From: Tissierellales bacterium
GTDB lineage: Bacteria > Bacillota > Clostridia > Tissierellales > JAOAQY01
Direction: 5' to 3'
Assembly (NCBI GenBank): GCA_025210965.1
Contig: JAOAQY010000044.1
Coordinates: 1 to 32,000 of the forward strand
Length of the DNA stretch: 32,000 bases
Below, one piece after another: positions 8,327-29,005 of this stretch; positions within the stretch are counted from its first letter, which is position 1, and each line of letters starts with the position of its first letter. The notes beneath the pieces are model-generated. The model did not search any database, had not been told where the DNA came from, and saw only the letters and a program-made list of their open reading frames with translations. The translations under genes were made by a program, and so were the position numbers.

Positions 8327-9925
8327 CTACTTGAATAACTCTAACTTAATCAAACTAATTATTCTATAATATCCTATAGGTGCTAATTCAGTAATTCTAA
8401 CAAATCCATCAAAATCGTCTCTTCCCTTTATCTCATCTAGCGTGAATGCATCTGAATAAAATTTATCGCGAATATATTGCTCGCTTACATCATCAAATAA
8501 AGATCCATCTGCACTACTATAGTTATATTTGATCGAATATTCAAATGAATCCACATCACATAGAAAACTAGGCGGATTTTTTACAACTACTATAGCTTTT
8601 ATATCTTTATATGGATGTACATAGCACATATCGCCAGCTTTCAAATCTGATATGTCCATAGCAAAAATCTTATTAGGGTCCGTAAGATCTTCAATTGTAG
8701 CTCTCCTTTCTATAGAGTCTACAAAATAAACCTTCACATCGCTGTATTTTTCCTTTGGTATAATTATATGATTTAATTCACGATCCTTTATATGAAGAGG
8801 ATTTCGATCTACATATCTAATCACAGCAAGTTTATCACTAGTCTCCGAAACGAATCCTGGGTAAAAGTATCTCGAATCGAACCCCAGTGTCTTGCCATAG
8901 TGAGTAAATCCTTTAGCCTCTTTGCTAAGCTCTTTTACCTCTTTTGGATCTAGCTTAATTAATACCGAAAATTCATTTGCCTGTGACATTGTGTATATAA
9001 GAACAAAATCCCCAATGCCGATAGCTCCATTTTCATCATAAAACTGCTTCATATCTTTATTTTCTTTCAGTGAAAACCTTTCATTTATACCAAATTCTTC
9101 TACATTAGTATCCTTATCTCGCCGACATCCAAATGTCCATACATCGTTATTTTTTGAAATAACCTTGTAAATATCATACATGAACCAATAATTTGGATTA
9201 TAGACTCTATTGTTATCATAAACTTCTAAGAGTTCTTTCTTTTTGCCATTCTCTATTTTAAATTGAGCGAGAACTATGTCTTCTTTGACCAGAAACATCG
9301 GATTATCATCTTCAAAAAATACAGATTCCAAATTATATCTCAAAACCCACTCTTCATAATCTCTATTTTTCATATAATAAGGTTCGTTAACTTTATCGTC
9401 TACTTCTATCCACTCTTCTAAACCTTCAAAGTAAAAGTCTGTAATCTGTACTACTTCATTTTTCAGATGCCCTTCCATATTCGTCCCTAAAGGCTCTGGA
9501 TTAAGAGTTTTATAACCTTTAAAATTATAAACACGATCTATTGGATGCAGCTTGATAATTTCACCTTTTTTATTCAAATCAATTCTCCAAATATAATCTT
9601 CCAAAAACGCAGGCTTGTACTCTTTTGAATTATCTATTATTTTTTCGTAATTCGGGTCCATTTTCAGTCCAAAAATATCTTCTGGTTCAAACATTTCTGT
9701 AAATACGTTAGCTCTATATCCAAAGTAATAATAATCACCATCTATCCTTATAAACTTGTAACCTATACCATCTTCATGATGTTCCTCCGCCTCCAACTTT
9801 GAAAGATAATAATCAAACTTTTCCTCTTTTATGCTAGTTTTTTCTGCCTTTGCACTTACTTGACAAACTTGAATTGTAATTAGTACCAAACATAATAAAT
9901 ACGTAAAAAACATCCTTTTTCTCAT
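8327..9925 (-). CDS. Hypothetical secreted protein (532 aa), no recognisable domain
   Basis: AGGAGG lies 9 nt upstream of the ATG. The N-terminus MRKRMFFTYLLCLVLITIQVCQVSA|KAE looks like a signal peptidase I substrate. The protein is rich in D/E/K/Y/F, and I recognise no catalytic motif. Confidence 0.7.
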   Translation of the reverse strand: MRKRMFFTYLLCLVLITIQVCQVSAKAEKTSIKEEKFDYYLSKLEAEEHHEDGIGYKFIRIDGDYYYFGYRANVFTEMFEPEDIFGLKMDPNYEKIIDNSKEYKPAFLEDYIWRIDLNKKGEIIKLHPIDRVYNFKGYKTLNPEPLGTNMEGHLKNEVVQITDFYFEGLEEWIEVDDKVNEPYYMKNRDYEEWVLRYNLESVFFEDDNPMFLVKEDIVLAQFKIENGKKKELLEVYDNNRVYNPNYWFMYDIYKVISKNNDVWTFGCRRDKDTNVEEFGINERFSLKENKDMKQFYDENGAIGIGDFVLIYTMSQANEFSVLIKLDPKEVKELSKEAKGFTHYGKTLGFDSRYFYPGFVSETSDKLAVIRYVDRNPLHIKDRELNHIIIPKEKYSDVKVYFVDSIERRATIEDLTDPNKIFAMDISDLKAGDMCYVHPYKDIKAIVVVKNPPSFLCDVDSFEYSIKYNYSSADGSLFDDVSEQYIRDKFYSDAFTLDEIKGRDDFDGFVRITELAPIGYYRIISLIKLELFK

Positions 9926-10007
9926 AAGACATTCCTCCTATTCATTGTTTACGCTTAGCGTGAATATCTCAATTCATATCCAAATACAAAAGCACATGGC
10001 TATCCTT

Positions 10008-11189
10008 CTAATTCAATTTCTCTACTGCCACCTTTATCCTCTCAAGCGCATCTTCTAAAACTACTCTAGCACAACCTATATTTAATCTCACAAATCCGTC
10101 TCCGCCAGTACCGTAGCAATCACCTTGATTCATAAGTACTTTAGCTTCCCTTATCAAAAAGTCTTCAAGTTCTTTTCCTTTTACAGGCATGCCTCTAAAA
10201 TCTAGCCACATCAAATAAGTGCCATCTGGTTTTGATACCTTTATTTGTGGCAGGTTTTCATCAATATAAGATTTCACAAAATCAGCGTTTCCTTCTAAAT
10301 ATACTAGCAATTGTTCTAGCCACTCTTCACCAAACGTGTATGCAGCTTCAAGTGCTTCAAAACCAAATACATTTGGCCTAGATATACCAAACGAAGCTCT
10401 CTTATCTAGATAAGCTTTTCGTAATTTTTCATTTGGTATGATGAGATTTGCTGTATTTAATCCAGCTACATTAAACGTCTTACTTGGAGCTGTACATATC
10501 ACTGTATTTTGAGCAAATGACTCCCCAAGCATAGCAAATGGCGTATGTTTAGACTTTTTATAAATCAAATCTCCATGTATTTCATCCGAAATTACAATCA
10601 CACCATGCTTTTCGCAAATTTCACCAAGTCTTGTAAGTTCTTCTCTAGTCCAAACTCTCCCAACAGGATTGTGAGGGCTACAAAGTATAAGTAATTTAAC
10701 ATTTTCAGACATTTGAGATTCTAAATTTTCAAAATCCATCTCATATCTATCTCCATTTTTGATCAGCGGATTCTCAACTACTTCGCATCCATGATTATTA
10801 ATAGCTTCATAAAACGGCGTGTATACTGGTGGCTGAACTATAATTTTATCTCCTGGTTTTGTAAGTGCCGATACTAACAAATTTAAACCAGTTACTATTC
10901 CTGGTGTATACGCAATCCATCCTCTATCAATATCCCATCCATGACGATTTTTCATCCATCTAATAACTGAATCCTCATAATCTTCAAAATCACCAGAATA
11001 ACCATATATACCGTGAGAAGCTTTGTGCTTCAACATATCAGCTACCTCTATAGGTGATTTGAAATCCATATCTGCAACCCACAGAGGTAGTATCCCCTCC
11101 GGATTTATTCCAAACTTTTCCTTTATACCATCCCATTTAAGCGAATGAGTATTCGCACGATTAATAGGTTTACTAAAATCATACCTCAT
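10008..11189 (-). CDS. patB: PLP-dependent class I/II aminotransferase-fold enzyme, MalY/PatB-type cystathionine beta-lyase (C-S lyase)
   Basis: 393-aa ORF. The N-terminal NRANTHSLKWD motif is typical of the PatB/MalY family. The SPHNPVGRVW and PSKTFN (PLP lysine) motifs are present. Confidence 0.8.
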   Translation of the reverse strand: MRYDFSKPINRANTHSLKWDGIKEKFGINPEGILPLWVADMDFKSPIEVADMLKHKASHGIYGYSGDFEDYEDSVIRWMKNRHGWDIDRGWIAYTPGIVTGLNLLVSALTKPGDKIIVQPPVYTPFYEAINNHGCEVVENPLIKNGDRYEMDFENLESQMSENVKLLILCSPHNPVGRVWTREELTRLGEICEKHGVIVISDEIHGDLIYKKSKHTPFAMLGESFAQNTVICTAPSKTFNVAGLNTANLIIPNEKLRKAYLDKRASFGISRPNVFGFEALEAAYTFGEEWLEQLLVYLEGNADFVKSYIDENLPQIKVSKPDGTYLMWLDFRGMPVKGKELEDFLIREAKVLMNQGDCYGTGGDGFVRLNIGCARVVLEDALERIKVAVEKLN

Positions 11190-11277: not shown

Positions 11278-14109
11278 TTATTCAATACCATTTACCCAAT
11301 TTAATGTATTTATTTTTCCATCTACTACTCCAAATCTAGCATTTAACTTTTCTCCAACAATGTACCTATACCAATTGTCAGCTACAGCAATTACTTCTTT
11401 CTCTTTTCCATTTGAAGTTTTTACTGTAAGCTTGTAATCATTCTCTTGTTTTACAACATCTAATATTTCTACCAAGTCATCGACATATTCATTCTTCAAA
11501 GGCCTTCCCTCAGCTGGAATAATTTGCGATTTGAATTTTTCTGATTTTTCATTAAACATCTGCATAGAAACCTTCTCTATAGCCTTCAAATTTTTATTTT
11601 CATCTCTAAAGAATTCAAAATAAATATCTTCATATGCTCTCTCATCATTTTTGTAAATATTTCCATAGTCTAATGCATCCCTAAACTTAGACTCTTCAGC
11701 TTCATTTAAAATAAAACTATGTGCTAAATCAAAATCATTAGTGTTTTCACCCATTCCAAATACAAATTTTCCATTTAATCTACCTAAGTAACGATATATG
11801 TAACTCTCATTTATTTTCCCCAAATATTCAACGCCCTTAATTACAAGTTCTTCCGCCCAATCTTTTTTGAATATTTCTCCTTCTATTTTATAAAGCGCAT
11901 CCTTATCAACCTCATTTTTCCCAAAAAGTCTTTTGATATCTGGTTCTTCTTTCAAATGAAATCTAATAGAATCTCCAGACTTTAAATCAAATAATTCCAT
12001 TTGGCTAGAATCAAATTCAATCCCAAATCCCGTGTAATTATTTTCCCCTATAGATGACCATTTTTCGAAACTAAATGGCACATAAGATATCCCATTATTA
12101 GTCACAATTGCACATTCTGCCTTTCCACTATCACCAACTAATACAACTGCATTCTTCACTCCATGTTCATATTTTTCCAAAAATTCATTTATACCTATCC
12201 TTTCTATTCCGTTTACAATTACAAATTCATCATCCAACTCGATAATATCTCCTGATGATGTTTCAAATCTCATCTTCGTTAACTCTCCATCAAATATTGA
12301 TCTTTCACTTGGAACAATTTTTATCATATCCCTTGCAACAAAATCATCAATCCCAACATTAAATAAATAAATTTCACCTTTTCTAAATCTCTCACTTGTC
12401 AAATCAAACTCTTTTAAATTTTCCAATCTATTTTTGTAAAGTTTTTTCAATTCCCCAGGATTTTTAACTATAAAATCGTAATCATAACTATACTCATAGC
12501 CTCTAGTATTTTCATCTACAATTATTTTTCCATCTATATTATTATACAAACCTCTTATATCTAATGATCCTATACCATATCCACTTTTAAAAACTTGACC
12601 TATTATTAATGAGGTTTTTTTATCTTCTGATTCAACATATGGAGAATTTCCTGCAAATAACATGCTTCTTACACTTGTATTAGCGAGGACAGTTCTGATT
12701 CTATTTTCATCATTTAGCTCAATATATATCCTCTCTCCTATAATATTTTGATTCTCTTTTTGGCCAAACCATATACAATCATCAGCCAAATATACCCATG
12801 ATCTTTGATTTTCATCAAATTGATTTGGAGCCATGCTACTCATATTTCCATATCCTAGTTCTAATTGTCCATCGCTTGAATTTAGTACTGTATAATATGC
12901 TGAATTTTTTTCTCTTGATATGATGGGATTAACCTTTGTTACATACCCGCCAGCAACTGAATCTATACTTATAACTGAATGTTTCAATTCTTGATAAAAG
13001 TATCCCTTATCATTTGACCAAAACGTTCTCAACTTGCCATCTTCATCTTTCAAAGTCATTTCAACCAAATCGCCGTATTTATCTAACTCTTCTACATCTA
13101 TTACTAAACCTCTCTCCAAATGATTTACTTTGTTTTCGCCCTCATCATCTAATTTTTCTATTGATACTAATTGATCCAGGCAATTTATTTTCAAGAATAC
13201 TATATCCCCTTCATTCCATGATTCTAAGTATTCATTGCTTTCTTCACTCATATCACTATGAGTTTTAATAATCTCTTCTACTAACTCAGATTTATTTTCT
13301 AATTCATAAGTCACATAAAAATTATTTTTTGACGACCCAACATCTTTTATTTTTGCTTTTACAATGTATTTTGTTGCATATTCAATCGAATCCAAATCAG
13401 TGAAGTAAATAAGACCGATTCCCTTTAAATCATCGGGACTTAAAATATATCTAAAAGAAGTTCTACCATCAGTATTGTATAAATCTGAAAAGTCCTTTTT
13501 CTCGCCTTTATAATTGAGCCATCTATCATAATCAAAAAACAAAAATCTTCCATTTTCTCGAGTAACTATAAATTCTTCGCTCATATAAAGACCTAAATTT
13601 TCTTCAATTTCATCATCATAATTTTTAATATTTGATATACTTTTCTCATCCTGTTCTACCAGTATCACAGCATCTATATTTCCTTCTTTCGATAAGTCTT
13701 CACTTTTTCTATGAAAATAAACTAAATCTCCCTGTTCTATATCTTCTTGAGAAATTCTAACCATTTTATCCTTAGCAAACTTAAAATTCTCTTCCAACAT
13801 ATCCCCTATTTTTAATTTTAAAAACACAGTGCTCTCATCTAAATCATTTGCTTTTATATGACTTTTTCTATCTATTTTATAGTACTCTACAATTTTATGG
13901 CTCTTTTTCGACCATTCCGACACCACTCCGCAAAAAAGCATTTCCGGATCAAATACTTCATCAATATTCTCATACAAACTATCTGCCGAACTCAGCACAT
14001 CACTCTTGCTAGATTTTTCTCCCTCGAGTTGAAACTCACAACTACATGCAATCATAAGCACAAAAAATACCGCCATTACCAAAACAATAAAATTACCTCT
14101 TTTTTTCAT
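11278..14109 (-). CDS. Hypothetical large exported protein, probable lipoprotein (943 aa), no recognisable domain
   Basis: The track start at 14124 is TTG. ATG 14109 follows GGGGAG with a 7-nt spacer. The N-terminus MKKRGNFIVLVMAVFFVLMIAC has a lipobox-like IAC. A G-D/E-x-[IV]-x-[FL] motif recurs along the protein. Confidence 0.7.
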   Translation of the reverse strand: MKKRGNFIVLVMAVFFVLMIACSCEFQLEGEKSSKSDVLSSADSLYENIDEVFDPEMLFCGVVSEWSKKSHKIVEYYKIDRKSHIKANDLDESTVFLKLKIGDMLEENFKFAKDKMVRISQEDIEQGDLVYFHRKSEDLSKEGNIDAVILVEQDEKSISNIKNYDDEIEENLGLYMSEEFIVTRENGRFLFFDYDRWLNYKGEKKDFSDLYNTDGRTSFRYILSPDDLKGIGLIYFTDLDSIEYATKYIVKAKIKDVGSSKNNFYVTYELENKSELVEEIIKTHSDMSEESNEYLESWNEGDIVFLKINCLDQLVSIEKLDDEGENKVNHLERGLVIDVEELDKYGDLVEMTLKDEDGKLRTFWSNDKGYFYQELKHSVISIDSVAGGYVTKVNPIISREKNSAYYTVLNSSDGQLELGYGNMSSMAPNQFDENQRSWVYLADDCIWFGQKENQNIIGERIYIELNDENRIRTVLANTSVRSMLFAGNSPYVESEDKKTSLIIGQVFKSGYGIGSLDIRGLYNNIDGKIIVDENTRGYEYSYDYDFIVKNPGELKKLYKNRLENLKEFDLTSERFRKGEIYLFNVGIDDFVARDMIKIVPSERSIFDGELTKMRFETSSGDIIELDDEFVIVNGIERIGINEFLEKYEHGVKNAVVLVGDSGKAECAIVTNNGISYVPFSFEKWSSIGENNYTGFGIEFDSSQMELFDLKSGDSIRFHLKEEPDIKRLFGKNEVDKDALYKIEGEIFKKDWAEELVIKGVEYLGKINESYIYRYLGRLNGKFVFGMGENTNDFDLAHSFILNEAEESKFRDALDYGNIYKNDERAYEDIYFEFFRDENKNLKAIEKVSMQMFNEKSEKFKSQIIPAEGRPLKNEYVDDLVEILDVVKQENDYKLTVKTSNGKEKEVIAVADNWYRYIVGEKLNARFGVVDGKINTLNWVNGIE

Positions 14110-14252
14110 ATTGTCACTCCCCAATTTAGTCGGTAGTGTAAAATATTACACTACTTTCTGTTTTCACAAATCGCGTATACATAATTTTATTATACACATT
14201 ACAATCGTTCAAGCTGTTACAAAATTATTAAAATTTTGATTAAACACAAAAA

Positions 14253-19435: not shown

Positions 19436-21478
19436 CTAATCAATTTTAAATTTACCTATTGCACCATTCAGTTCATTTGCCAAATCAGATAATGACTGAC
19501 TAGCTGATGAAATTTCATCCATCGATGCAGTTTGTTCCTCTACACATGCTGATGACTGCTGAGTACTAGCTGCATTCTCTTCTGCTATCGCGGATAGATT
19601 CTGTATAGTATCCAATATATCTTCTTTTTGTTTTTCCATTGCCTTTTCAGAAGCATTGAGTTTCTTCATTGCAGTTTCAGATAATTTTATAGCTTCAAAT
19701 ATTTCTCTATACTTTCCTTCAGTATCTCCTACGCTATTAACCTGTTGCTCTATGATTTCAGTTACCCTCTCTATAGTCGAAACCGCCAAACTAGAGCTAT
19801 CTATAAGTTCCTGAACTATTTCATCTATTCTCTTTGTGGATTCAGTTGACTGCTCAGCTAATTTTCTAATTTCTTCAGCAACTACTGCAAATCCCTTTCC
19901 AGCTTCTCCTGCTCGAGCCGCCTCTATAGCAGCGTTTAATGCCAGTAAATTAGTTTGCTCTGCTATTGAAGCTATCATATTACTAGCTTCTCCAATCTTT
20001 CCTGTACTTTCATCTGTTTTTTTGATTACATCAAAAATCTCTTTAGTTGCTAAATTAGTCTCTTTTGCCTTTACACTCAAGTCATCAACTATTTCTAGCC
20101 CCGTTTCAACTAATCCAAATACATTTGTTGAAGCCTGATTTAAATCCCTCATATGTGATTTGTTTTCCTCAATCAAATCTCCAAGTTCTGCTGTTTTCAT
20201 AGCTCCTTCAGTTGTACTCTCGGCTTGATCGGTAGCACCTTTTGCAATTTCTTGTATAGTCGTTGCCACTTCGCTAGATGCAATTGCAACATGCTCAGCA
20301 GTTTCGTTTAAATAACTTGCAGAAGATGTAACTCTATCAGAAGTATCCTTTATTTCTCCTACTAGTTCTCTAAAGCTATCTGTAAGATACTGAAATGACT
20401 TTGACAATGCCCCAATCTCATCATTTCTCTTAACAAAATCACTTGAAATATCCTCTCTAAAATCTCCCTTTGCTAAAAGCTGTGCATAATCAGCAGCTTG
20501 AACTACAGGTTTAATAGTCTTTTTTATACTGATGAATACTATGGTTACTAAAACAAATGCTCCAATTATATAAATACCTATCAAAAGTGCAGTAAATTTT
20601 GATAGCGGTGCAAAGACTTCTGATTTATCAACTAATTGAATTATTCCCCATCCATTTATTTCTATTGGCTCATATGATACCAGATAACCTATGTCATTAT
20701 ATTCTAGTTCAGTAATATCTGACTTTCCAGATAAAACTTCACTTTCTACAGATGAAAATCCCTTGACATCCGATAAATGCTTCTCTTCTTTTATCAATGT
20801 CTCGTCAGCAGCATAAACAATTTGACCTTCATCTGTTATCAAAAAGTTTGTGCCCTTTTCTCCAATTTTATAATTTTCCATAATCTCTGGTACTCTTTTA
20901 AGTGAAATATCTGCCGAATAGAAACCTATGACTTTTCCTTGATCTTCAATAGCTGTAATACCTGATATTACAGTATTTCCTGAGCCAGAATCTTCATACG
21001 GAGGTGTAAATGCAACTCCATCAGTTCCCATTGCTAATTTATACCATGGTCTTTCACTCGTTATATAACTAGGCTTAGAAACATATTTCGTATTGTCTAT
21101 AAAGAAATCAGCATTTTGACTTGCTATAAAAATAAACATTAAATTTTCATATGAATCTGCAACATTAGTTATAGTTCTACTGACTGTATCATACAAATCA
21201 TGGCTTGTGATTTGCTCCCTAGTCTCGACCTCTTTCAAATACCGTTTAACATTTTCATCAGTAGTCCCCTGATTTGCAATCTGCCTAGTTATCTCAAATA
21301 TACTAGATATACTTTTGTCAACTAAATCAGACTTAGTTTCAATATTTTTGACGATATTTGCCCTTAATTCAGTTTTAGTATTATTGTAAACCACTATGCC
21401 AGATATTACGAAAATAAATATTATGGCTACCAATACAATAGATACTAATTTGCTTGCTATACTACGTCTTTTACTCAT
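19436..21478 (-). CDS. Methyl-accepting chemotaxis protein, paralogue A (680 aa; Cache-type sensor, HAMP, MA domain)
   Basis: AGGAGG lies 6 nt upstream of the ATG. It has two TM segments, the sensor motif ERPWYKLA and the MA core [51 protein letters not shown]. It is gap-free co-linear with the 26963..29005 product. Confidence 0.9.
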
Positions 21479-21715: not shown

Positions 21716-22381
21716 CTACAATGATATATTTAAAGGATCATCTGAATAATAAAGAACCATATCTTTAATATAGTTTACAACTTCATTAACTTCTCTCTCT
21801 ATATCATCTGTTCCCTCATCTAATATAGTCTTGAATTTTCCTTTGAAAAAATACACTGCCATCTTATTTAATTTTAGTGCTTTTTCTATGGAAATAACTC
21901 CTTCTTTCACACAATTTCTGCACATGTACTGATCCCTTTTAAGAAAACTACCCTCTTTAAGCATAATCTGCAAATATTCGCTAACGATATTTATACTATT
22001 TGGAAACATATCATAGTATTCTTGCAACGCTCTTGGAAGAATCTTGCTCTGTGGTCCAAAAAATATGCAGTCAAAAGCCTTTGGATACCTGAAAGCCTGC
22101 CTTGAATAACACTCCCATATACCTATGTGCTTCTCCCATATATTCTTCCATTGCGCTTCTTTATCGTGAAGCTGAGTCACATATCCCTCTAGATATACCA
22201 ATTGAGCGTATACCAATAGTTCATTGAGATTGTCAAAATGTCTATACAATGTAGTCGTGCTACAATTCATCTCTTTAGCTAATCGCCTAATTGATATGCT
22301 TTCGACACCTTCTTTTTTTACAATCTCTTGCGCTTTTATAATATATTCTCTTCTACTAAAATTTCTTCCTTGAATCACCAT
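21716..22381 (-). CDS. TetR/AcrR-family transcriptional regulator
   Basis: The track start at 22387 is GTG. ATG 22381 follows GGAGGT with an 8-nt spacer. The N-terminal HTH is ISIRRLAKEMNCSTTTLYRHFDNLNELL, followed by an all-helical C-terminal domain. Confidence 0.85.
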   Translation of the reverse strand: MVIQGRNFSRREYIIKAQEIVKKEGVESISIRRLAKEMNCSTTTLYRHFDNLNELLVYAQLVYLEGYVTQLHDKEAQWKNIWEKHIGIWECYSRQAFRYPKAFDCIFFGPQSKILPRALQEYYDMFPNSINIVSEYLQIMLKEGSFLKRDQYMCRNCVKEGVISIEKALKLNKMAVYFFKGKFKTILDEGTDDIEREVNEVVNYIKDMVLYYSDDPLNISL

Positions 22382-22401
22382 ATACACGTACCTCCGAAGA
22401 A

Positions 22402-22436: not shown

Positions 22437-23525
22437 TTAAGCTGCTTCTTCTTCAGATGCTGTTTTAGTAACTATTTTCTTGATGTCCTTAACTATCATA
22501 ATCACTAAAAGAGCCGCTCCGACATATCCATTCAATACGTAAACTACATTGACCAGTTTTGAAAATGGCAATTTAACTCCGACAATTAGTCCTACAACAG
22601 CTAATACTATCGTAAGTACCTTGAAATTCTTACTCTTGTCTTCTGTAAATCTTGAAGATGCTGACCAAAGTAGTGGCACTGCAGTTGTAAATATTCCACA
22701 ATACACTATTATAGAAAATACTGTTGCTAGAAATGGACTTATATTACCTGACATTATTAACATAGGTATTTCACTTTTACCAACTAATTCTATAACCGAA
22801 AGAAGTCCCATAGCAACTACCCCTACTGCTATAGAAAAAAGTGTCGCACCTATAATTGCTCCCATTCCAGCTTGTTTTTTGCTGTCCGCAGTCGCTCCCA
22901 TAGATGCCAAAAAGCTAGCTAACCACAACATACAAAATCCAACATAAGATGTCGCTGCCATAAACCAATTAGACGATGCCTGCATTATATTCATATCCGG
23001 AATACTTCTACTAGCCTCTCCTATATGACCGAAGTTCATAAACAATGTTATTGCTCCTACTGCTATAGACATAAATACTATAATCGGTCCTATTTTCCCT
23101 ATTATATCCACTATTTTATTCAATCCCATGAGCACGACTAACGTAACTATTATAGTCATTATAGTTCCTCCAACTACTACTGGTTGACCATAATGCTGAT
23201 TAAGTGTTGCTCCTGCTCCTGCAACCATTACTATGAATGATAGGTATATGAAAACTATCGAAAAATAATCATAAAAATTTCCCAATATATTGCCGCAATA
23301 GTATTTATATATATCACTACCTCTTTCAAATTGTTCTCTCTGCCCCACTGTTATAAAACTATATCCAACATACATCAATAGCAAAAGTGTAACTAAAACC
23401 CCAGCTATTCCCCAATAACCATATGATGTAAAGTATTGAAGTACCTCTTGTCCTGTTGCAAAACCTGATCCAATCAAATAAGCTATAAACGCACCTGCAA
23501 ATGTAAAAACCTTTTTATAATCCAT
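22437..23525 (-). CDS. YkvI-family polytopic membrane protein (putative amino-acid-type transporter, distant APC superfamily)
   Basis: 362 aa with about 11 hydrophobic helices. The N-terminal FAGAFIAYLIGSGFATGQEVLQYF motif is characteristic of the YkvI (COG3949) family. AGGAGG lies 6-7 nt upstream of the ATG. Confidence 0.8.
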   Translation of the reverse strand: MDYKKVFTFAGAFIAYLIGSGFATGQEVLQYFTSYGYWGIAGVLVTLLLLMYVGYSFITVGQREQFERGSDIYKYYCGNILGNFYDYFSIVFIYLSFIVMVAGAGATLNQHYGQPVVVGGTIMTIIVTLVVLMGLNKIVDIIGKIGPIIVFMSIAVGAITLFMNFGHIGEASRSIPDMNIMQASSNWFMAATSYVGFCMLWLASFLASMGATADSKKQAGMGAIIGATLFSIAVGVVAMGLLSVIELVGKSEIPMLIMSGNISPFLATVFSIIVYCGIFTTAVPLLWSASSRFTEDKSKNFKVLTIVLAVVGLIVGVKLPFSKLVNVVYVLNGYVGAALLVIMIVKDIKKIVTKTASEEEAA

Positions 23526-23605: not shown

Positions 23606-24001
23606 TTATTTCAAATAATTTCTGATTGCATTGTCAATCAAAGATTGATCAATGGTTCTATGGTCGTCAGCTATGCTCTCTTCATAAATCGGCACAGGAT
23701 GATTCTTAATAAATTTATGGTAAGTTTCTATCGCGCTGTCTAATAGCATCACGCCGTTTACATCAGTCCCTCCCGAGCTACCTTTCTCGAGCATCACACT
23801 TCTATATGGAGTTTGGTTGGGTTTTAAACTACCTGCTTGTGGATGAGTCAAAAGTACATATCCATCCGAAACCATATATTTTGCCGTTGTGAGCACACCG
23901 ATATAATTTTCCGCTACTTTAACATCCACGACTTTGGCGTATTTCTCACATACTTTTTTATTATTCGTAACTATAACCGCTTTACTCTCTTTATAAAACA
24001 C
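23606..24001 (-). CDS. grdX: GrdX-family protein (small accessory protein of glycine/sarcosine/betaine reductase loci)
   Basis: 131 aa with a GTG start and a GGTGG SD. The VTNNKKV motif and the LLTHPQAGSLKPNQTPYRSV block match the conserved GrdX core (LLTHPLSGSVKPNETPYKS) as I recall it. Confidence 0.75.
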   Translation of the reverse strand: MFYKESKAVIVTNNKKVCEKYAKVVDVKVAENYIGVLTTAKYMVSDGYVLLTHPQAGSLKPNQTPYRSVMLEKGSSGGTDVNGVMLLDSAIETYHKFIKNHPVPIYEESIADDHRTIDQSLIDNAIRNYLK

Positions 24002-24022: not shown

Positions 24023-25330
24023 TTATTCGAATACTGTTTGTTCTTCTATTTCAGTTTCTAAAGATTTCAATGCTCTTCTGACAAGTTCTTCTCTAACCTT
24101 TTTGCTATCTTTTTCTCCAAGTAATGGATTTCCTAATGGATAAGGAATACCAACAGCTGGAACTATTCTATTTGCTCCAATTGTAAGCGAAATAGGAACT
24201 ACTGTAGCTATATGTGCTACTGGAATACCTACTCTCTCAATTTCTTTTACCATAGTTGCACCGCAACGCGTACAAGTGCCTCAAGTGGATGTTAATAGGA
24301 CTGCATCAACCTTATCCTCTAGTAAACCCTTAGTGAATTCCTCACCAAAACGCTTTGAATTTCCAGTAGATGTCCCCGTACCCGTAGTACTGATGAAATA
24401 ATTAGCTAATTCTCCAATTTCACCTGCCACTTCCATCTCTCTAAGCACATCAAGTGGTATTACTAAATTTGGATTTTCAAGCACATAGGCTCTATCATAT
24501 CCACCGTGAACTGTCATAAAATCGTCTTTGCTCATAGCACTCATTCCCTCAATGCTATATTTTCCCCACTTAGTTGCACTAGATGACTCTATATGATCTG
24601 GATTTCCATGAGGTACTATTCCTCCCGATGTAACTACAGCTATCTTTAATTTACTCACATCTTTTACAGCTGGATTTGGAGCAACCTTGTCAAATGTAGG
24701 CATAGAATACTCTGTTTCAACATCTTCACCATTGCATTTTTTAACAAGTAAATCGACCGCCCTTTTTGAGCCTCTAATTTCATTGAAGTAATTTACTCTA
24801 ATTCCTCTTTCAATATATCCTTCTATTGCTGGAGATAATATCTCCTCTTCTCCAACCATTTTCTTAACTAAATTTGCTATTTTTGGCATTGTCTTTTTCA
24901 TACCTGCTGCTGAAATAGGTGTTTCAATTATATGCAAATCCTTTTTAAACATATCTACACCAGGATTTTCAGGATACATTCCAGTAACTACTTTTATTCC
25001 AAGCTTTTCCTCTACTGCCTTTGCAATAGTACCACAAGCTACACCGTATCTACCGGCATTAAATGCTGGTCCAGCAACAAAAACAGCTGGATTTTCGCCT
25101 TTAACCATTTCTAAAATAGTTTCTTCAGCTTGCTCTAGGTTTTCACCAAAATAATTATCACCACAAACAATTGTAGCTACTATCTCAAAGTCATCTCCAA
25201 GAAATGATGCAAGCGATGCTCCTGGGCCTACTGCACCTTTTTTAAGACTTGGTGTAATATCAGCTTTTTCTTCTCCGCCGATGCCTCCAAAAAATTGATT
25301 CAAATAATGAACTACTTTTATTTTCCCCAT
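24023..25330 (-). CDS. grdB: Selenoprotein B of a glycine/sarcosine/betaine-type reductase (GrdB/GrdF/GrdH family), 435 aa with Sec at residue 350
   Basis: Track ORFs 24281..25330 and 24023..24253 are in the same frame. An in-frame TGA (24283..24281) and 9 open codons join them. The junction reads LLTST-U-GTCTRCGATMVKEIERVGIP, the canonical UxxCxxC redox motif of GrdB. The N-terminus VVHYLNQFFGGIGGEEKA is typical of GrdB. GGAGGG lies 5-6 nt upstream of the ATG. Confidence 0.9.
24255..24283 (-). other. UGA selenocysteine codon plus SECIS-like hairpin
   Basis: In minus-strand sense, UGA is followed by a 13-nt spacer. Then comes GUUGC-GGU-GCAAC (24267..24255), a perfect 5-bp stem with a GGU apical loop. 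This fits the spacing and loop type of bacterial SECIS elements. Confidence 0.6.
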
Positions 25331-25340
25331 GATTTCCCTC

Positions 25341-26627
25341 CTAATATCCTCTAGCCGCTAATTTATTGTAACCATTTGCAATAGTAGATGCTATTATGAT
25401 TTGAAGTTCTGCATCAAAACTTCCATCAGCATTCATACAGCCATCACTACCACCAATTTGCGACTCGATATAGTCCGTCATTCCAATAACTTTGTCCATA
25501 GCTGGAAAATGTAGCATAGCATTACCTTGCCCACAAGAAACTAAAGTATCAGCCTCTTCAACTACATCGGCTAAAGACTGTGATTTACCATCCTTACCCG
25601 GGAACTCATCTGTGATAAGTACAACCTTTGCTCCTGCTTCAGTTGCCTTTTTACAATTCATCATGAGATCAGTATCTGGATTTCCATATCCTTCCTCAGT
25701 TATAATTACTCCATCTAACCCCATAAATTCAACTAATTTTCCAACCATATCCGAGCATCTCTCTTTATCTGCAAGAAATACATTCTCATTAGTCAGTATA
25801 ACGCCCATGAAATTCAAGTCTTTACCGTGTCTTTCATACAAATCATGAATAACAGGGTTATTTAAGTGGTGGAACGTAGTAACCTTGTCACAAGGAGCCA
25901 CACAATTACCACTAACTATAGCTCCATCCATTATCTCAGTTGGATACATAAATGTAGGAATAAATTGCTTAGCATCCACTCCATAATAATAAGTATCATG
26001 TAATAAACCTTGAGATTGAAGCATGTGAATATATCCTATTTTAGGCAATTTAGGGTATTGTGCTATTTGTTCCTGAAGTGGTTTTGTTTCATAAGTAACT
26101 ATCTCATTAGGCTCTACTTCTCTTGCAGCTTCACCAACATATGTCGCCACCTTCAAACCTACTAAACGAGCAGATTCTTCATATACATGTGTCTCTAATC
26201 CCTCTACTGGTTCTACTACTACACATAAATTAAGAGTCTTAGAAAACGGACAATAATCAGCTGCTGGACCGCTCATATCTATTACGCCTTCTTGAAAACC
26301 TACAATCTTACCGCAAGTAACTACATTCATACCAACAAGCGCATGAGTTCTTCCACTACCAACTTGTTTTACCTTATTGATAACACCTGGGAATATTTTT
26401 CCCTTCCCTGAAACCTTAACTCTTGGCTCTATAACATCTTTTACCGGTGTAATTCTAACTGACTCTCCCGGTTTAGCAATATCAATTTTCACTGATTTGA
26501 TTTTGTCGTCCTCAAGAACCAAATCCTCAACTGCCTTTTTGCTTACATAAAGAGTACTACCATCAACTCTAGTCTTCTCTCCAAAGACCAAGTCTTTCAC
26601 ATAAATTTTCCCAATTTCTAATTTCAC
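25341..26627 (-). CDS. grdE: GrdE-family proprotein (alpha/beta subunits of the substrate-specific protein B; pyruvoyl-forming)
   Basis: 428 aa with a GTG start and AAGGAGG 8 nt upstream. The N-terminus MKLEIGKIYVKDLVFGEKT and the blocks GFQEGVIDMSGP and LLHDTYYYGVDAK resemble GrdE. SGN-C falls at residues 239-242, which is the GrdE cleavage position. The stop lies 10 nt before the grdB-like start. Confidence 0.9.
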   Translation of the reverse strand: MKLEIGKIYVKDLVFGEKTRVDGSTLYVSKKAVEDLVLEDDKIKSVKIDIAKPGESVRITPVKDVIEPRVKVSGKGKIFPGVINKVKQVGSGRTHALVGMNVVTCGKIVGFQEGVIDMSGPAADYCPFSKTLNLCVVVEPVEGLETHVYEESARLVGLKVATYVGEAAREVEPNEIVTYETKPLQEQIAQYPKLPKIGYIHMLQSQGLLHDTYYYGVDAKQFIPTFMYPTEIMDGAIVSGNCVAPCDKVTTFHHLNNPVIHDLYERHGKDLNFMGVILTNENVFLADKERCSDMVGKLVEFMGLDGVIITEEGYGNPDTDLMMNCKKATEAGAKVVLITDEFPGKDGKSQSLADVVEEADTLVSCGQGNAMLHFPAMDKVIGMTDYIESQIGGSDGCMNADGSFDAELQIIIASTIANGYNKLAARGY

Positions 26628-26642
26628 AAATAAACCTCCTTA

Positions 26643-26658
26643 TTGTTATCGCGATACT
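26643..26658. repeat. Leader repeat copy C (TTGTTATCGCGATACT; core palindrome TATCGCGATA at 26647..26656)
   Basis: It is an exact 16-nt duplicate of 26689..26704. In mRNA sense it ends 3 nt before the AAGGAGG SD of the grdE-like gene. Confidence 0.8.
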
Positions 26659-26666
26659 TAAAAGAT

Positions 26667-26692
26667 AAAAAAAACAAATCCATGGCATTTGT
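26667..26692 (-). terminator. Weak hairpin plus U8 tract inside the grdE-like leader (possible attenuator)
   Basis: In minus-strand sense, ACAAAU-GCCAUGG-AUUUGU is followed by UUUUUUUU. The stem is only 6-7 bp and AU-rich, so the call is tentative. Its 5' arm overlaps repeat copy B. Confidence 0.3.
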
Positions 26693-26704
26693 TATCGCGA
26701 TACT
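26689..26704. repeat. Leader repeat copy B (TTGTTATCGCGATACT; core palindrome at 26693..26702)
   Basis: It is an exact 16-nt duplicate of copy C, 46 nt away. Confidence 0.8.
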
Positions 26705-26770
26705 CGCAATGTAAAAAAATAAATTTATTTGATAATTAACGCAATATAGAAGCACAGCAAGCGGCGCTAT

Positions 26771-26782
26771 GTTATCGCGGTA
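26771..26782. repeat. Leader repeat copy A (GTTATCGCGGTA, 11/12 match to copies B and C)
   Basis: It lies 80 nt from copy B, at about +8..+19 relative to the transcription start predicted from the promoter at 26796..26824. Confidence 0.6.
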
Positions 26783-26795
26783 ATTATTTGTTATA

Positions 26796-26824
26796 ATATT
26801 ATCATAGTTTTTTAGCCTCTGCAA
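26796..26824 (-). promoter_or_regulatory. SigmaA-type promoter (extended -10) for the grdE-grdB-grdX unit
   Basis: In minus-strand sense, TTGCAG (26824..26819) is followed by a 17-nt spacer ending in TGA, then TAATAT (26801..26796). Confidence 0.5.
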
Positions 26825-26880
26825 TAACTTTTTTAAATAGTCTGAAAAAAACAAAAAAATTCTATTTAGTTTATCTATAA

Positions 26881-26927
26881 AAACAAAACCATACTAAATC
26901 CTCAAAAATACGAAATAGCATGGTTTT
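26881..26927 (-). terminator. Rho-independent terminator after MCP paralogue B
   Basis: In minus-strand sense, AAAACCAUGCUA pairs with UAGUAUGGUUUU (12 bp including one wobble pair, ~19-nt loop). GUUUUUAU follows. Confidence 0.6.
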
Positions 26928-26962
26928 ATATATATGATTTATTCTTTCAATTTAACTATATC

Positions 26963-29005
26963 TTACTTAACTTTAAACTTTCCTATAGCTTGATTTAATG
27001 AACTAGCTAAATCAGCCAATGATTGACTAGCTGACGAAATTTCATCCATAGATGCTGTCTGTTCTTCAACACTAGCCGCTGATTCTTCAGTACTAGCTGC
27101 ATTTTCTTCTGCTATTGCAGATAATGTCTGAATAGTATCCAGTATATCAGTTTTCTTTTCCTCCATGGCCTCTCCCGACAGGTTTAAACGCTCTATGGCC
27201 TTCTCTGACATTTGTATAGCTGCATATATTTCTTTATACTTATCTTCAGTATCTCCAACACTATTGACTTGCTGTTCTATGATTTTAGTTACTCTTTCAA
27301 TAGTTGTAACTGCAAGTTTTGAGCTATCTACAAGTTCTTGTACTATATCATCAATTCTCTTTGTAGACTCCGTAGATTGCTCTGCTAATTTCCTAATCTC
27401 CTCAGCAACTACAGCAAAACCTTTTCCGGCTTCTCCAGCTCTAGCTGCCTCGATTGCAGCATTCAATGCAAGTAAATTTGTCTGCTCTGCTATCGAAGCT
27501 ATGACATTACTAGCCTCACCAATTTTTCCTGTATTTTCATCTGTTTTTTTAATCACATTGAAAATTTCTTTTGTTGCAGTGTCAGTTTCTTTTGCTTTAT
27601 CACTCAAATCATCAACTATAACCAATCCTGCTTTGACTAGTTCAAATACATTTTCAGATGCGTTATTTAAAGCATCCATATAATCTCTGTCTTTTTCTAT
27701 CAAATCTCCTAATTCTGCTGCTTGCATTGCCCCTTCAGTAGTGCTCTCGGCCTGATCAGTCGCTCCTCTTGCTATTTCCTGTATCGTACTTGCGACCTCT
27801 CCTGAAGCTATAGATACATGTCCTGCAGTTTCATTTAAATAATTTGCTGAAGACGAAACTTGATTTGAAGTAGTTTGAATTTCTCCAACTAAATTTCTAA
27901 AATTTTCTGTAAGATATTGGAATGATTCTGCCAGTAATCCAATTTCATTGTTCTTTTTCAAAAATTCAGCATCCACATTTTGGCTAAAATCACCACTAGC
28001 CAAAACTTGACCATATTTTGAAGCAACTATTACCGGTTTTATGATACGTCTTACGCTTACAAAAACTACAAAACCCAGAACTAAAATTCCTATGACATAT
28101 ATTATTCCCAATATTGAAGTAAACTCGTTCAATGAATTAAAAGCTTCTGACTTGTTAACTAATTGTATTATCCCCCATCCATTTATCATTATTGGTTCAT
28201 AAGCAACTAAATAAGTCTCTCCATTATAATCCAATTCTTCAATATCTGCTTTTCCAGCTAGCACTTCTTCTTGAACATTTTCAAATCCTTCAATTTCAGA
28301 CAATTTTATAGATTTTTTCATCAAATTAGAATCTTGAGCATATACTATCTGCCCGACCTTATTTATAAGAAAATTTGTTCCTTTTTCACCAATTTTGTAA
28401 TGATTCATTATTTCAGGTATTTTTTCTAAAGAAATATCTGCAGAATAAAAACCTATTATTTCACCATTTTCTCGAATAGCTGTTATACCTGAAATTATTG
28501 TTTCACCACTACCTGCATCTACATATGGAGTTGTAAATTCAACTTTATTAGAATTTACTGCCAAATTATACCAAGGTCTAGTCCTACAATTATAATCTTT
28601 TTTAGATATTGTTCCAGTACTCTCCAAATAAAAATTAGCTCTTTCATTAGCTATCCATGAAAAATATAAATTCTCGTATGAACTTCCTACATTTGATAAT
28701 GTATCGAGCACATCACCATATAATTCATGTGTTTCGATTTGATCATATGTGTCAACTTCTCTTAAATATCTCTGAACATTTTTGTCAGTTACTCCTTGTT
28801 TTACTACTTGTTCTGTTATCTCAAATATATTAGATACACTTTTATTTACTAAATCAGATTTTGTTTCAATATTATTCATTATATTTAAAGTTAATTCTGA
28901 TTTTGTTTTGCTAAATACTGCGACTCCTGATGCAACAAATATAACTAATATTGAGCTAAGTACAATAGCCATCAATCTTGTTGCAATACTACCTCTTTTT
29001 TTCAT
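26963..29005 (-). CDS. Methyl-accepting chemotaxis protein, paralogue B (680 aa; Cache-type sensor, HAMP, MA domain)
   Basis: GGGGGAG SD. Its architecture and length match paralogue A. The 50-aa run [51 protein letters not shown] is identical in both. Confidence 0.9.

Follow-up and report, generated by a model that had tools for sequence, protein, structure and literature searches.

A cassette of five genes in the order grdG-grdF(Sec)-grdX-ykvI-tetR lies on the minus strand of a 32,000-nucleotide stretch of DNA (the window) from a Tissierellales metagenome-assembled genome (GCA_025210965.1, contig JAOAQY010000044.1, positions 1 to 32,000), behind a leader that contains three copies of a palindrome. 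On the strength of their sequence, and of the company they keep in related genomes, these copies, termed A, B and C in the order in which they would be transcribed, are very probably (about 0.85 in our estimate) DNA operators of the TetR-type repressor predicted from the last gene of the cassette itself. Copies B and C each follow an uninterrupted run of Ts at a distance of 8 nt, a pairing that recurs across many species of anaerobes from gut and sediment. The features concerned, from promoter to start codon and with the regulator gene last, are these:

26819..26824, minus strand: -35-like hexamer TTGCAG of the predicted operon promoter, 3/6 consensus positions, 17 nt from the -10 and not called by the promoter scan
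26796..26804, minus strand: extended -10, TGa + TAATAT (TAATAT itself at 26796..26801), 11 nt upstream of copy A
26771..26784, minus strand: putative operator copy A, ATTACCGCGATAAC, at about +5..+18 of the predicted transcript, matrix score 18.3
26713..26719, minus strand: T7 run, 8 nt upstream of copy B, read from the sequence
26691..26704, minus strand: putative operator copy B, AGTATCGCGATAAC, matrix score 17.3
26674..26692, minus strand: weak hairpin ACAAAT-gccatgg-ATTTGT, its 5' arm sharing 2 nt with the end of copy B, at -4.1 kcal/mol and z -0.95 relative to shuffled sequence
26667..26674, minus strand: T8 run, 8 nt upstream of copy C, read from the sequence
26645..26658, minus strand: putative operator copy C, AGTATCGCGATAAC, directly 5' of the ribosome-binding site, matrix score 17.3
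26635..26641, minus strand: Shine-Dalgarno sequence AAGGAGG, with the GTG start of grdG at 26625..26627, both read from the sequence
21716..22387, minus strand: TetR-family regulator of 223 aa, last gene of the cassette and proposed binder of copies A, B and C (Pfam TetR_N, AlphaFold 2 model with Foldseek, co-occurrence with the motif)

A first-pass annotation, made from the letters of the window alone, had pointed to three related copies, to an identity of B and C over 16 nt, to a spacing of 46 nt between those two and to a 10-bp palindromic core, and the sequence bears out each of these. The 16-mer AGTATCGCGATAACAA is present as copy C at 26643..26658 and again as copy B at 26689..26704, 46 nt upstream, and its core TATCGCGATA reads as a palindrome over all 10 bp, with one mismatch in copy A (as a 13-mer TTACCGCGATAAC, 26771..26783 of the minus strand, in mRNA sense). 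That no other exact copy had been seen in the window by eye agrees with a search of the whole 32 kb for the 10-mer with at most one mismatch, which gave three sites only, namely A, B and C, all inside 140 nt of one leader; the expectation from shuffles is 0.67, and three or more matches arose in 3 of 100 shuffles. The 14-bp weight matrix from which the above scores come was derived from orthologous leaders, and the next best site in the 32 kb reaches 8.8. It finds no site in the window near tetR itself, as had been remarked of the promoter of that gene. The gene downstream of the leader, which the first-pass annotation had termed grdE-like, is matched here as grdG (NCBIfam NF040793).

Two elements of the leader are present as first described without being strong. 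The promoter TTGCAG-17-TAATAT, with a TGn extended -10, agrees with consensus at 7 of 12 positions (three in the first hexamer and four in the second), but no promoter was called by the consensus scan of the leader. It is accepted here because its geometry is conserved in orthologues: the 11 nt between the -10 and copy A match at least 16 orthologous promoters in which 10-11 nt separate the -10 from the site (the '+1 class'), and this positional class is common to L007-L012, L036, L045, L047, L058 and others. A position like that of copy C, with the site starting 30-47 nt before the start codon, is found in more than 20 orthologous leaders. The hairpin followed by U8 also exists (arms ACAAAT at 26687..26692 and ATTTGT at 26674..26679), but it is weak, was not called a terminator by the consensus scan and is not conserved. 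The terminator-like scan flags only 26753..26771, right after copy A, where three G-C pairs (CATAGCG...TGCTGTG) are followed by CTTCTATATT.

Is the palindrome, then, a companion of grdG or of tetR? The loci of 80 grdG orthologues from species-representative genomes (GrdG identity 73-86%) were compared, and in many of them the 10-mer is found just 5' of grdG. The matrix was built by symmetrising the sites of orthologous leaders that had been seeded with the 10-mer, and 700 nt upstream of grdG were scanned with it. The consensus is GTTATCGCGATAAC with A/T-rich flanks, a palindrome of 14-16 bp in which the flanking T is 97% and the next G 69% conserved; since conservation extends past the 10-mer seed, the palindrome has the size of an operator for a TetR dimer. 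An orthologue of the cassette TetR (36-59% identity) is encoded in 35 of the 80 loci, and every one of these has between one and seven sites within 700 nt upstream of grdG, with at least one scoring about 15 or more. The remaining 45 loci are without a TetR orthologue, and among them 40 have no site, four have weak and distant matches (10.8-14.9) and just one, L052, has a strong site, on a truncated contig that has 104 nt ahead of grdG. The prevalent gene order elsewhere is grdX-tetR-sites-grdG-grdF-(ykvI). A second, independent sample consisted of metagenome loci taken from the TetR side, and there too TetR orthologues adjoining grdG (at least 69% identity) are invariably accompanied by sites. 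Two paralogous TetR groups at other loci (L081-L106 and L128-L160) have no motif scoring 15 or above, and in L082, L103 and L142 no site reaches even a score of 8. Across at least 160 related loci nearly all strong copies (score of 17 or more) are at grd-related promoters or leaders. The check first suggested for the motif, its position in related genomes, thus came out in favour of a functional site, recurring upstream of grdG and tracking the TetR gene.

The sites also fall at characteristic positions with respect to promoters. About 19-28 sites occupy the 17-nt spacer of promoters of the form TTGAAT/TTGCAA-17-TATAAT, as in cTTGAAT-GTTATCGCGATAAG-atg-TATAAT, and about 16-19 others are placed behind the -10 hexamer, 10-11 nt from it. 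The divergent grdX-tetR promoter of L059, which is on the opposite strand, likewise has a site in its spacer, and extra strong sites stand 5' of trxA-grdA (L009, L012, L036) and of SNF-family transporter genes (L004, L062). Such untranscribed or orientation-independent sites argue for recognition at the level of DNA, and the predicted sites at grdGF, trxA-grdA and transporter promoters make up a coherent, dedicated TetR regulon.

The regulator presumed to act on it is recognizable in sequence chiefly by its N-terminal domain. The window protein matches Pfam TetR_N with 25.2 bits (cut-off 24), as do all 31 aligned orthologues (best E = 2e-11), and a profile of the family matches TetR proteins of the PDB (E = 2e-8), mainly over the helix-turn-helix. 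The AlphaFold 2 model is all-helical, with 13 helical segments according to DSSP, and of moderate quality (pLDDT 78.7, pTM 0.70), having been made with an alignment of only three sequences, the number of proteins that a protein word-index search with the TetR query returned. The 50 best Foldseek matches of the model in the PDB are all TetR-family regulators, over about 200 columns and with TM scores of 0.4-0.6. The C-terminal domain matches no TetR_C family of Pfam, and so the ligand is not to be had from homology; presumably the inducer is sarcosine or a related N-methyl amino compound. One further locus, L167, the closest relative to have a different gene order, encodes a TetR that is 58% identical, and there a creatinase gene (Creatinase_N + Peptidase_M24, 9661..10899) directly follows grdF. 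Because of that creatinase the predicted TetR switch, if the operator reading is right, probably governs the anaerobic use of creatine as well as sarcosine. With regard to autoregulation, in loci of the order grdX-tetR-grdG a site upstream of grdX was found in none of 25, and autoregulation would therefore be specific to arrangements such as those of the window, L003 and L059.

Of the two readings that the first-pass annotation had left side by side, that of operators for a dimeric helix-turn-helix repressor, with the cassette TetR as the candidate, is thus strongly supported by the co-occurrence, by the sites in promoter spacers and by those at linked promoters. The other supposed that the self-complementary copies act in the RNA, pairing either as A:B or as B:C in mutually exclusive helices and so controlling a terminator, the hairpin with U8, beside the ribosome-binding site. 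The minimum free energy fold does pair B with C around the small hairpin (-39.2 kcal/mol, z -2.2), a U-run does follow the hairpin before C, and U-runs are conserved in orthologous leaders. However, many leaders contain just one site, many sites lie in promoter spacers and are never transcribed (the class of site that largely refutes the attenuator), and the hairpin is not among the conserved features. Nor was the covariation looked for in orthologous leaders found: in an inter-site test over 36 site pairs 8 deviations were compensated, 16 were shared and 45 were neither. What is conserved is identity of sequence and not pairing, and the outer deviation common to B and C would itself be mismatched in a B:C helix. 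Rfam, at gathering threshold over the whole window, finds only SECIS_4, which is elsewhere, and a permissive scan of 26500..27100 gave matches at chance level (E >1); no riboswitch or other family matches the leader, and the glycine riboswitch that had not been seen by eye is not seen by Rfam either. Such an attenuator is accordingly very improbable. What survives of the weight once given to the U-tract is its conservation at a fixed 8 nt from the operator, its part in RNA-RNA pairing having fallen away.

Could some other regulator, borne by the cassette or global, bind the palindrome while TetR controls something else? Binding by the cassette TetR to A, B and C is a prediction, and grdX almost always adjoins tetR and could be suspected in its place; yet grdX is also present in loci lacking both TetR and the motif, no further regulator gene is common to the loci that bear the motif, the size and symmetry of the site are typical of TetR, and the motif tracks the TetR gene (35/35 against at most 1/45). 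Another binder is therefore improbable, though rather less so than the attenuator. As for a dispersed repeat lacking positional preference, which the first-pass annotation had named as the observation that would speak against a function, or a cluster due to chance, the loose matches in the few shuffles mentioned above are the most that can be said for either. The window has no further copy in its 32 kb, the sites are confined to 140 nt, B and C share 16 identical nt, and the motif is met with again at this position in 35 other species; chance or dispersal can be practically discounted.

What distinguishes these operators from the ordinary is a run of Ts in front of those that stand within the leader and not at the promoter. 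In a survey of 94 non-identical site contexts, a T-run being defined as at least six Ts upstream of the 14-mer, 31 contexts have such a run, of 6-10 and mostly 7-9 Ts. The gap between run and 14-mer is 8 nt in 24 of these 31, 9 in three, 10 in two, and 11 and 6 in one each. The 24 cases with a gap of 8 nt have 21 distinct fillers, which differ from one another by a mean Hamming distance of 5.1 out of 8, and the background rate predicts about 0.4 coincidences where 24 are seen (probability about 3e-36). The run is always on the promoter side, a mirrored A-run downstream of the operator not being found in any context; in grdG leaders without TetR, T-runs are rare (almost never present). The distance from operator to Shine-Dalgarno sequence is 3-13 nt, save that in L123 and L125 the run with its operator stands about 80 nt before the ribosome-binding site. 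The unconserved filler, the one-sided arrangement and the variable distance to the Shine-Dalgarno sequence link the T-run with the operator and with transcriptional direction, and separate it from the ribosome-binding site, a coupling that, on sequence grounds, points to an interplay of bound protein with RNA polymerase and not to RNA-RNA pairing.

Both B, with T7, and C, with T8, conform to the 8-nt rule, copy A being of the class defined by the -10 and 11 nt, and in L167 a 14-mer identical to copy B stands behind T7 and 8 nt. On three conspecific metagenome contigs (L161, L162, L164) the leader is the same as in the window except that T7 has become T8 before B and T8 has become T7 before C, with both 8-nt gaps kept; these differences are either homopolymer length polymorphism or an assembly effect. 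Cultured relatives that share the layout of the window include Sellimonas catena, Faecalimonas umbilicata, Dorea and Peptacetobacter. A description of the runs as intrinsic terminators in general was considered and dropped, the hairpins upstream of 21 T-runs having a mean z of -0.1 against shuffles. Some leaders do have a hairpin there, that before copy C at -4.1 kcal/mol being joined by those of L072 (-6.7) and L076 (-8.6) and, by eye, of L031, L032, L059 and L112; most are without.

In several leaders the T-run-coupled operator is the only one: L065, L129 and L137, and the Peptacetobacter loci L031, L032 and L108, with the sole operator of L109 following T5. A predicted promoter without an operator lies about 45 nt upstream of the coupled site in L065, L129 and L137, so that a block to elongation is the only action left to a repressor in these three leaders, and the T-run/operator switch would be the sole means of repression in some species. 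Sites internal to the leader, downstream of predicted near-consensus promoters, are also present in L034, L056, L078, L079, L112, L123, L125, L129 and L141. The T-run covers positions -16 to -9 relative to the operator, close to where a polymerase would come to rest (that of E. coli stops about 14 bp before an EcoRI-Q111 site), and this proximity, together with the single coupled operators, makes an elongation block likely.

A scheme that would accommodate these features is as follows. Without inducer, a TetR homodimer on copy A, 11 nt after the -10, would block either open complex formation or promoter escape, and repressor bound to copies B and C, about 85 and about 130 nt into the leader, would be a roadblock to such polymerases as had escaped. 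A polymerase stalled there would have the 3' end of its RNA in or at the U-run, where the weak rU:dA hybrid would favour backtracking and release, helped by Mfd or, ahead of C, by the small hairpin. Polymerases would be removed singly, and no queue would build up to push the repressor off. On arrival of inducer the repressor would be freed, the U-runs by themselves letting polymerase through, and with tetR last in the operon induction would also raise the level of repressor, a negative feedback. Polymerase cooperation and Mfd-dependent termination are known to determine the strength of a roadblock (PMC10310618). That the pair of T-run and operator works as a module for roadblock and release is a tentative proposal, to which we would give somewhat less than even odds, and the more specific one, that T7-9, 8 nt and a TetR operator constitute a ligand-switchable roadblock terminator, the bacterial counterpart of the Reb1/T-rich terminators of RNA polymerase I (Pol I), is a shade more doubtful again.

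A number of points weigh against this scheme. A bacterial polymerase halted on a U-run is not known to let go unaided where a hairpin is lacking, and hairpins before the T-runs are too inconsistent for a general description of the latter as canonical intrinsic terminators. Should the polymerase halt about 14-15 bp short of the operator, no more than the first few Us would be in the hybrid. The promoter of the window is weak by consensus, and the transcription start, together with the placing of the three copies with respect to it, is a prediction to be read with that in mind. In about half of the T-runs a TA comes first, which makes TATTTT, a possible -10-like element. For the operators as such, the co-occurrence of motif and TetR gene could partly reflect a cassette and leader that are inherited or transferred as a unit, an objection limited by the leader sequence outside the motif not being conserved.

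The possible -10-like element leads to a different view of the T-runs, under which the palindromes are TetR operators as before and the runs are TATTTT hexamers of secondary promoters or sigma pauses, 11-12 nt ahead of the operator, or NusG-type TTNTTT pauses, or intrinsically bent T-tract DNA that assists repressor binding or looping. An A precedes 17 of 21 T-runs; in the window TTGCGT-17-TATTTT-11 nt-copy B resembles TTGCAG-17-TAATAT-11 nt-copy A; and the true -10 hexamers of the '+1 class' are at nearly the same offset from the operator. Against this, 7-9 pure Ts are longer and purer than a -10-like element requires, T8 and T9 imply a gap of 12-13 nt from -10 to site where the at least 16 true '+1' promoters have 10-11 nt, and convincing -35 hexamers are mostly missing. 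A contact of the repressor with bent DNA sits oddly with a run that is one-sided and never mirrored when the dimer is symmetric, and looping is not favoured by the inter-operator distances (29, 46, 53, 63-66, 70, 74, 77, 80 and 83 bp), which show no helical phase. Roles of this kind for the T-runs, taken together, we regard as rather unlikely.

The remainder of the cassette, and the upstream limit of the control region of grdG, are as follows:

26885..26927, minus strand: terminator hairpin belonging to the chemoreceptor gene upstream, AAAACCATGCTA...TAGTATGGTTTT and then T-rich sequence; it bounds the control region of grdG on the upstream side
25341..26627, minus strand: grdG, sarcosine reductase component B alpha proprotein (NCBIfam NF040793, 855 bits, cut-off 780)
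24023..25330, minus strand: grdF, selenoprotein B with an in-frame UGA (NCBIfam sarcosine_GrdF matches the N-terminal part)
24243..24280, minus strand: SECIS element of grdF, just 3' of the in-frame UGA (Rfam SECIS_4, 52 bits)
23606..24001, minus strand: grdX (NCBIfam GrdX, 125 bits)
22437..23525, minus strand: YkvI-like membrane protein, a putative substrate transporter (source names; syntenic after grdF in many loci)

With gaps of only 10-80 nt between them the five genes are likely to form one operon. Callers of open reading frames (ORFs) break grdF into pieces of 349 and 76 aa, and the SECIS_4 match confirms it as a selenocysteine-containing protein B. On either side of the cassette is a gene for a dCache chemoreceptor of 680 aa (19436..21478 and 26963..29005), the two being 67% identical; an insertion of the cassette between tandem chemoreceptor paralogues may account for this, as may a functional link of the receptors with it. 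Elsewhere in the window the ORFs at 8327..9925 (532 aa) and 11278..14124 (948 aa) have no Pfam match.

The paralogous TetR groups have features of their own. In many human-gut contigs (L081-L106) a TetR 49% identical to the window protein is encoded upstream of a GrdE/GrdG-like gene (40% identity). This locus (for example L082:4959..7844), without the motif, has another palindrome, GTTACCATGGTAT (core TACCATGGTA), about 140 nt upstream of the reductase gene, and this could be the operator of that gene. The second group, 44% identical (L128-L160, for example L142:4962..5666), has neither grd genes within 5 kb nor the motif. In one metagenome contig (L107:7094 and 7224) about 130 nt of the leader, comprising the operator and the T-rich flank on its upstream side, occur twice in tandem before grdG. 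Matches to the matrix with scores of 12-18, resembling GTAATCGCGTTTAC, also recur in several loci within the ykvI-like gene, about 25-35 nt past its start (L002:8692, L036:8756, L065:8783, L076:8825); they may be conserved coding sequence and not operators, and have no counterpart in the window.

In the literature that could be searched no paper was found to connect the genes of sarcosine or glycine reductase with a TetR regulator or with this motif, nor is a regulator for these cassettes described. If the assignment is correct, many sarcosine reductase cassettes of gut and environmental Clostridia would acquire a regulator, together with an operator consensus, GTTATCGCGATAAC, and a regulon (grdGF, transporter, trxA-grdA). 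A repressor with its operators is a system of an ordinary kind, and the conserved module of T-run and operator is the unusual part. Were that pairing, at its fixed distance, to function as proposed, it would be a design rule not noted for bacterial repressors, and would explain, by the removal of each stalled polymerase, how a small dimeric repressor can block elongation efficiently. The module, of about 30 bp, would also be of use to those engineering synthetic control of transcription downstream of any promoter.

With characterized TetR repressors (that of Tn10 with tetO1/tetO2, QacR, RamR, FasR, Rv0078) the cassette protein has in common the TetR_N helix-turn-helix and a predicted all-helical domain for ligand binding and dimerization, and the systems are alike in palindromes of about 15 bp, in several operators overlapping a promoter, in control of an adjacent gene and in presumed release by an inducer. 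They differ in that only the helix-turn-helix is here detectably similar in sequence, with no Pfam TetR_C match, that the target is a selenoprotein reductase of the Stickland type, and that many operators are well inside the leader with a T-run 8 nt upstream. The operator GTTATCGCGATAAC has not been reported for such a system in the searchable literature, where matches to the 10-mer concern unrelated MarR or LacI work. Leaders of grd or amino-acid operons with an intrinsic-terminator attenuator or a riboswitch, such as the glycine riboswitch or a T-box, are similar in having a U-run, sometimes with a hairpin, 5' of the ribosome-binding site; in contrast, the present leader has no Rfam match and neither conserved structure nor covariation, and its conserved palindrome is of the protein-binding type and is present in untranscribed DNA also.

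Closer in function, as envisaged, are the bacterial roadblocks, in which a DNA-bound regulator downstream of the start blocks elongation, as the TetR protein would here. In these, among them LacI at O2, PurR at purB, CodY and CcpA of Bacillus subtilis and C.Kpn2I, the efficiency of the block is set by termination of the stalled complex, in which Mfd takes part (review PMC10310618; see also PMC6237814). No natural roadblock with a dedicated upstream T-run at a fixed distance is described in the roadblock literature searched, and such a pairing, conserved across many species, is what sets the present leaders apart from the known bacterial examples. It is in eukaryotes that the nearest likeness is to be found. 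Pol I comes to a stop 15 bp before a Reb1/Nsi1 site, within a T-rich element of the non-template strand that cooperates with the roadblock, promotes backtracking and weakens the hybrid; release is set off by a hairpin further upstream (PMC12366685). The polymerase, the protein family and the domain of life are all different, and those terminators are constitutive and at the end of a gene, whereas the proposed bacterial switch would be responsive to a ligand and is at the start of an operon, without a consistent hairpin. Nonetheless, the module at copy C of the window and the Pol I terminators of Reb1, Nsi1 and TTF-I have the same order of parts, hairpin, T-run, spacer and protein site, a likeness of layout and not of descent.

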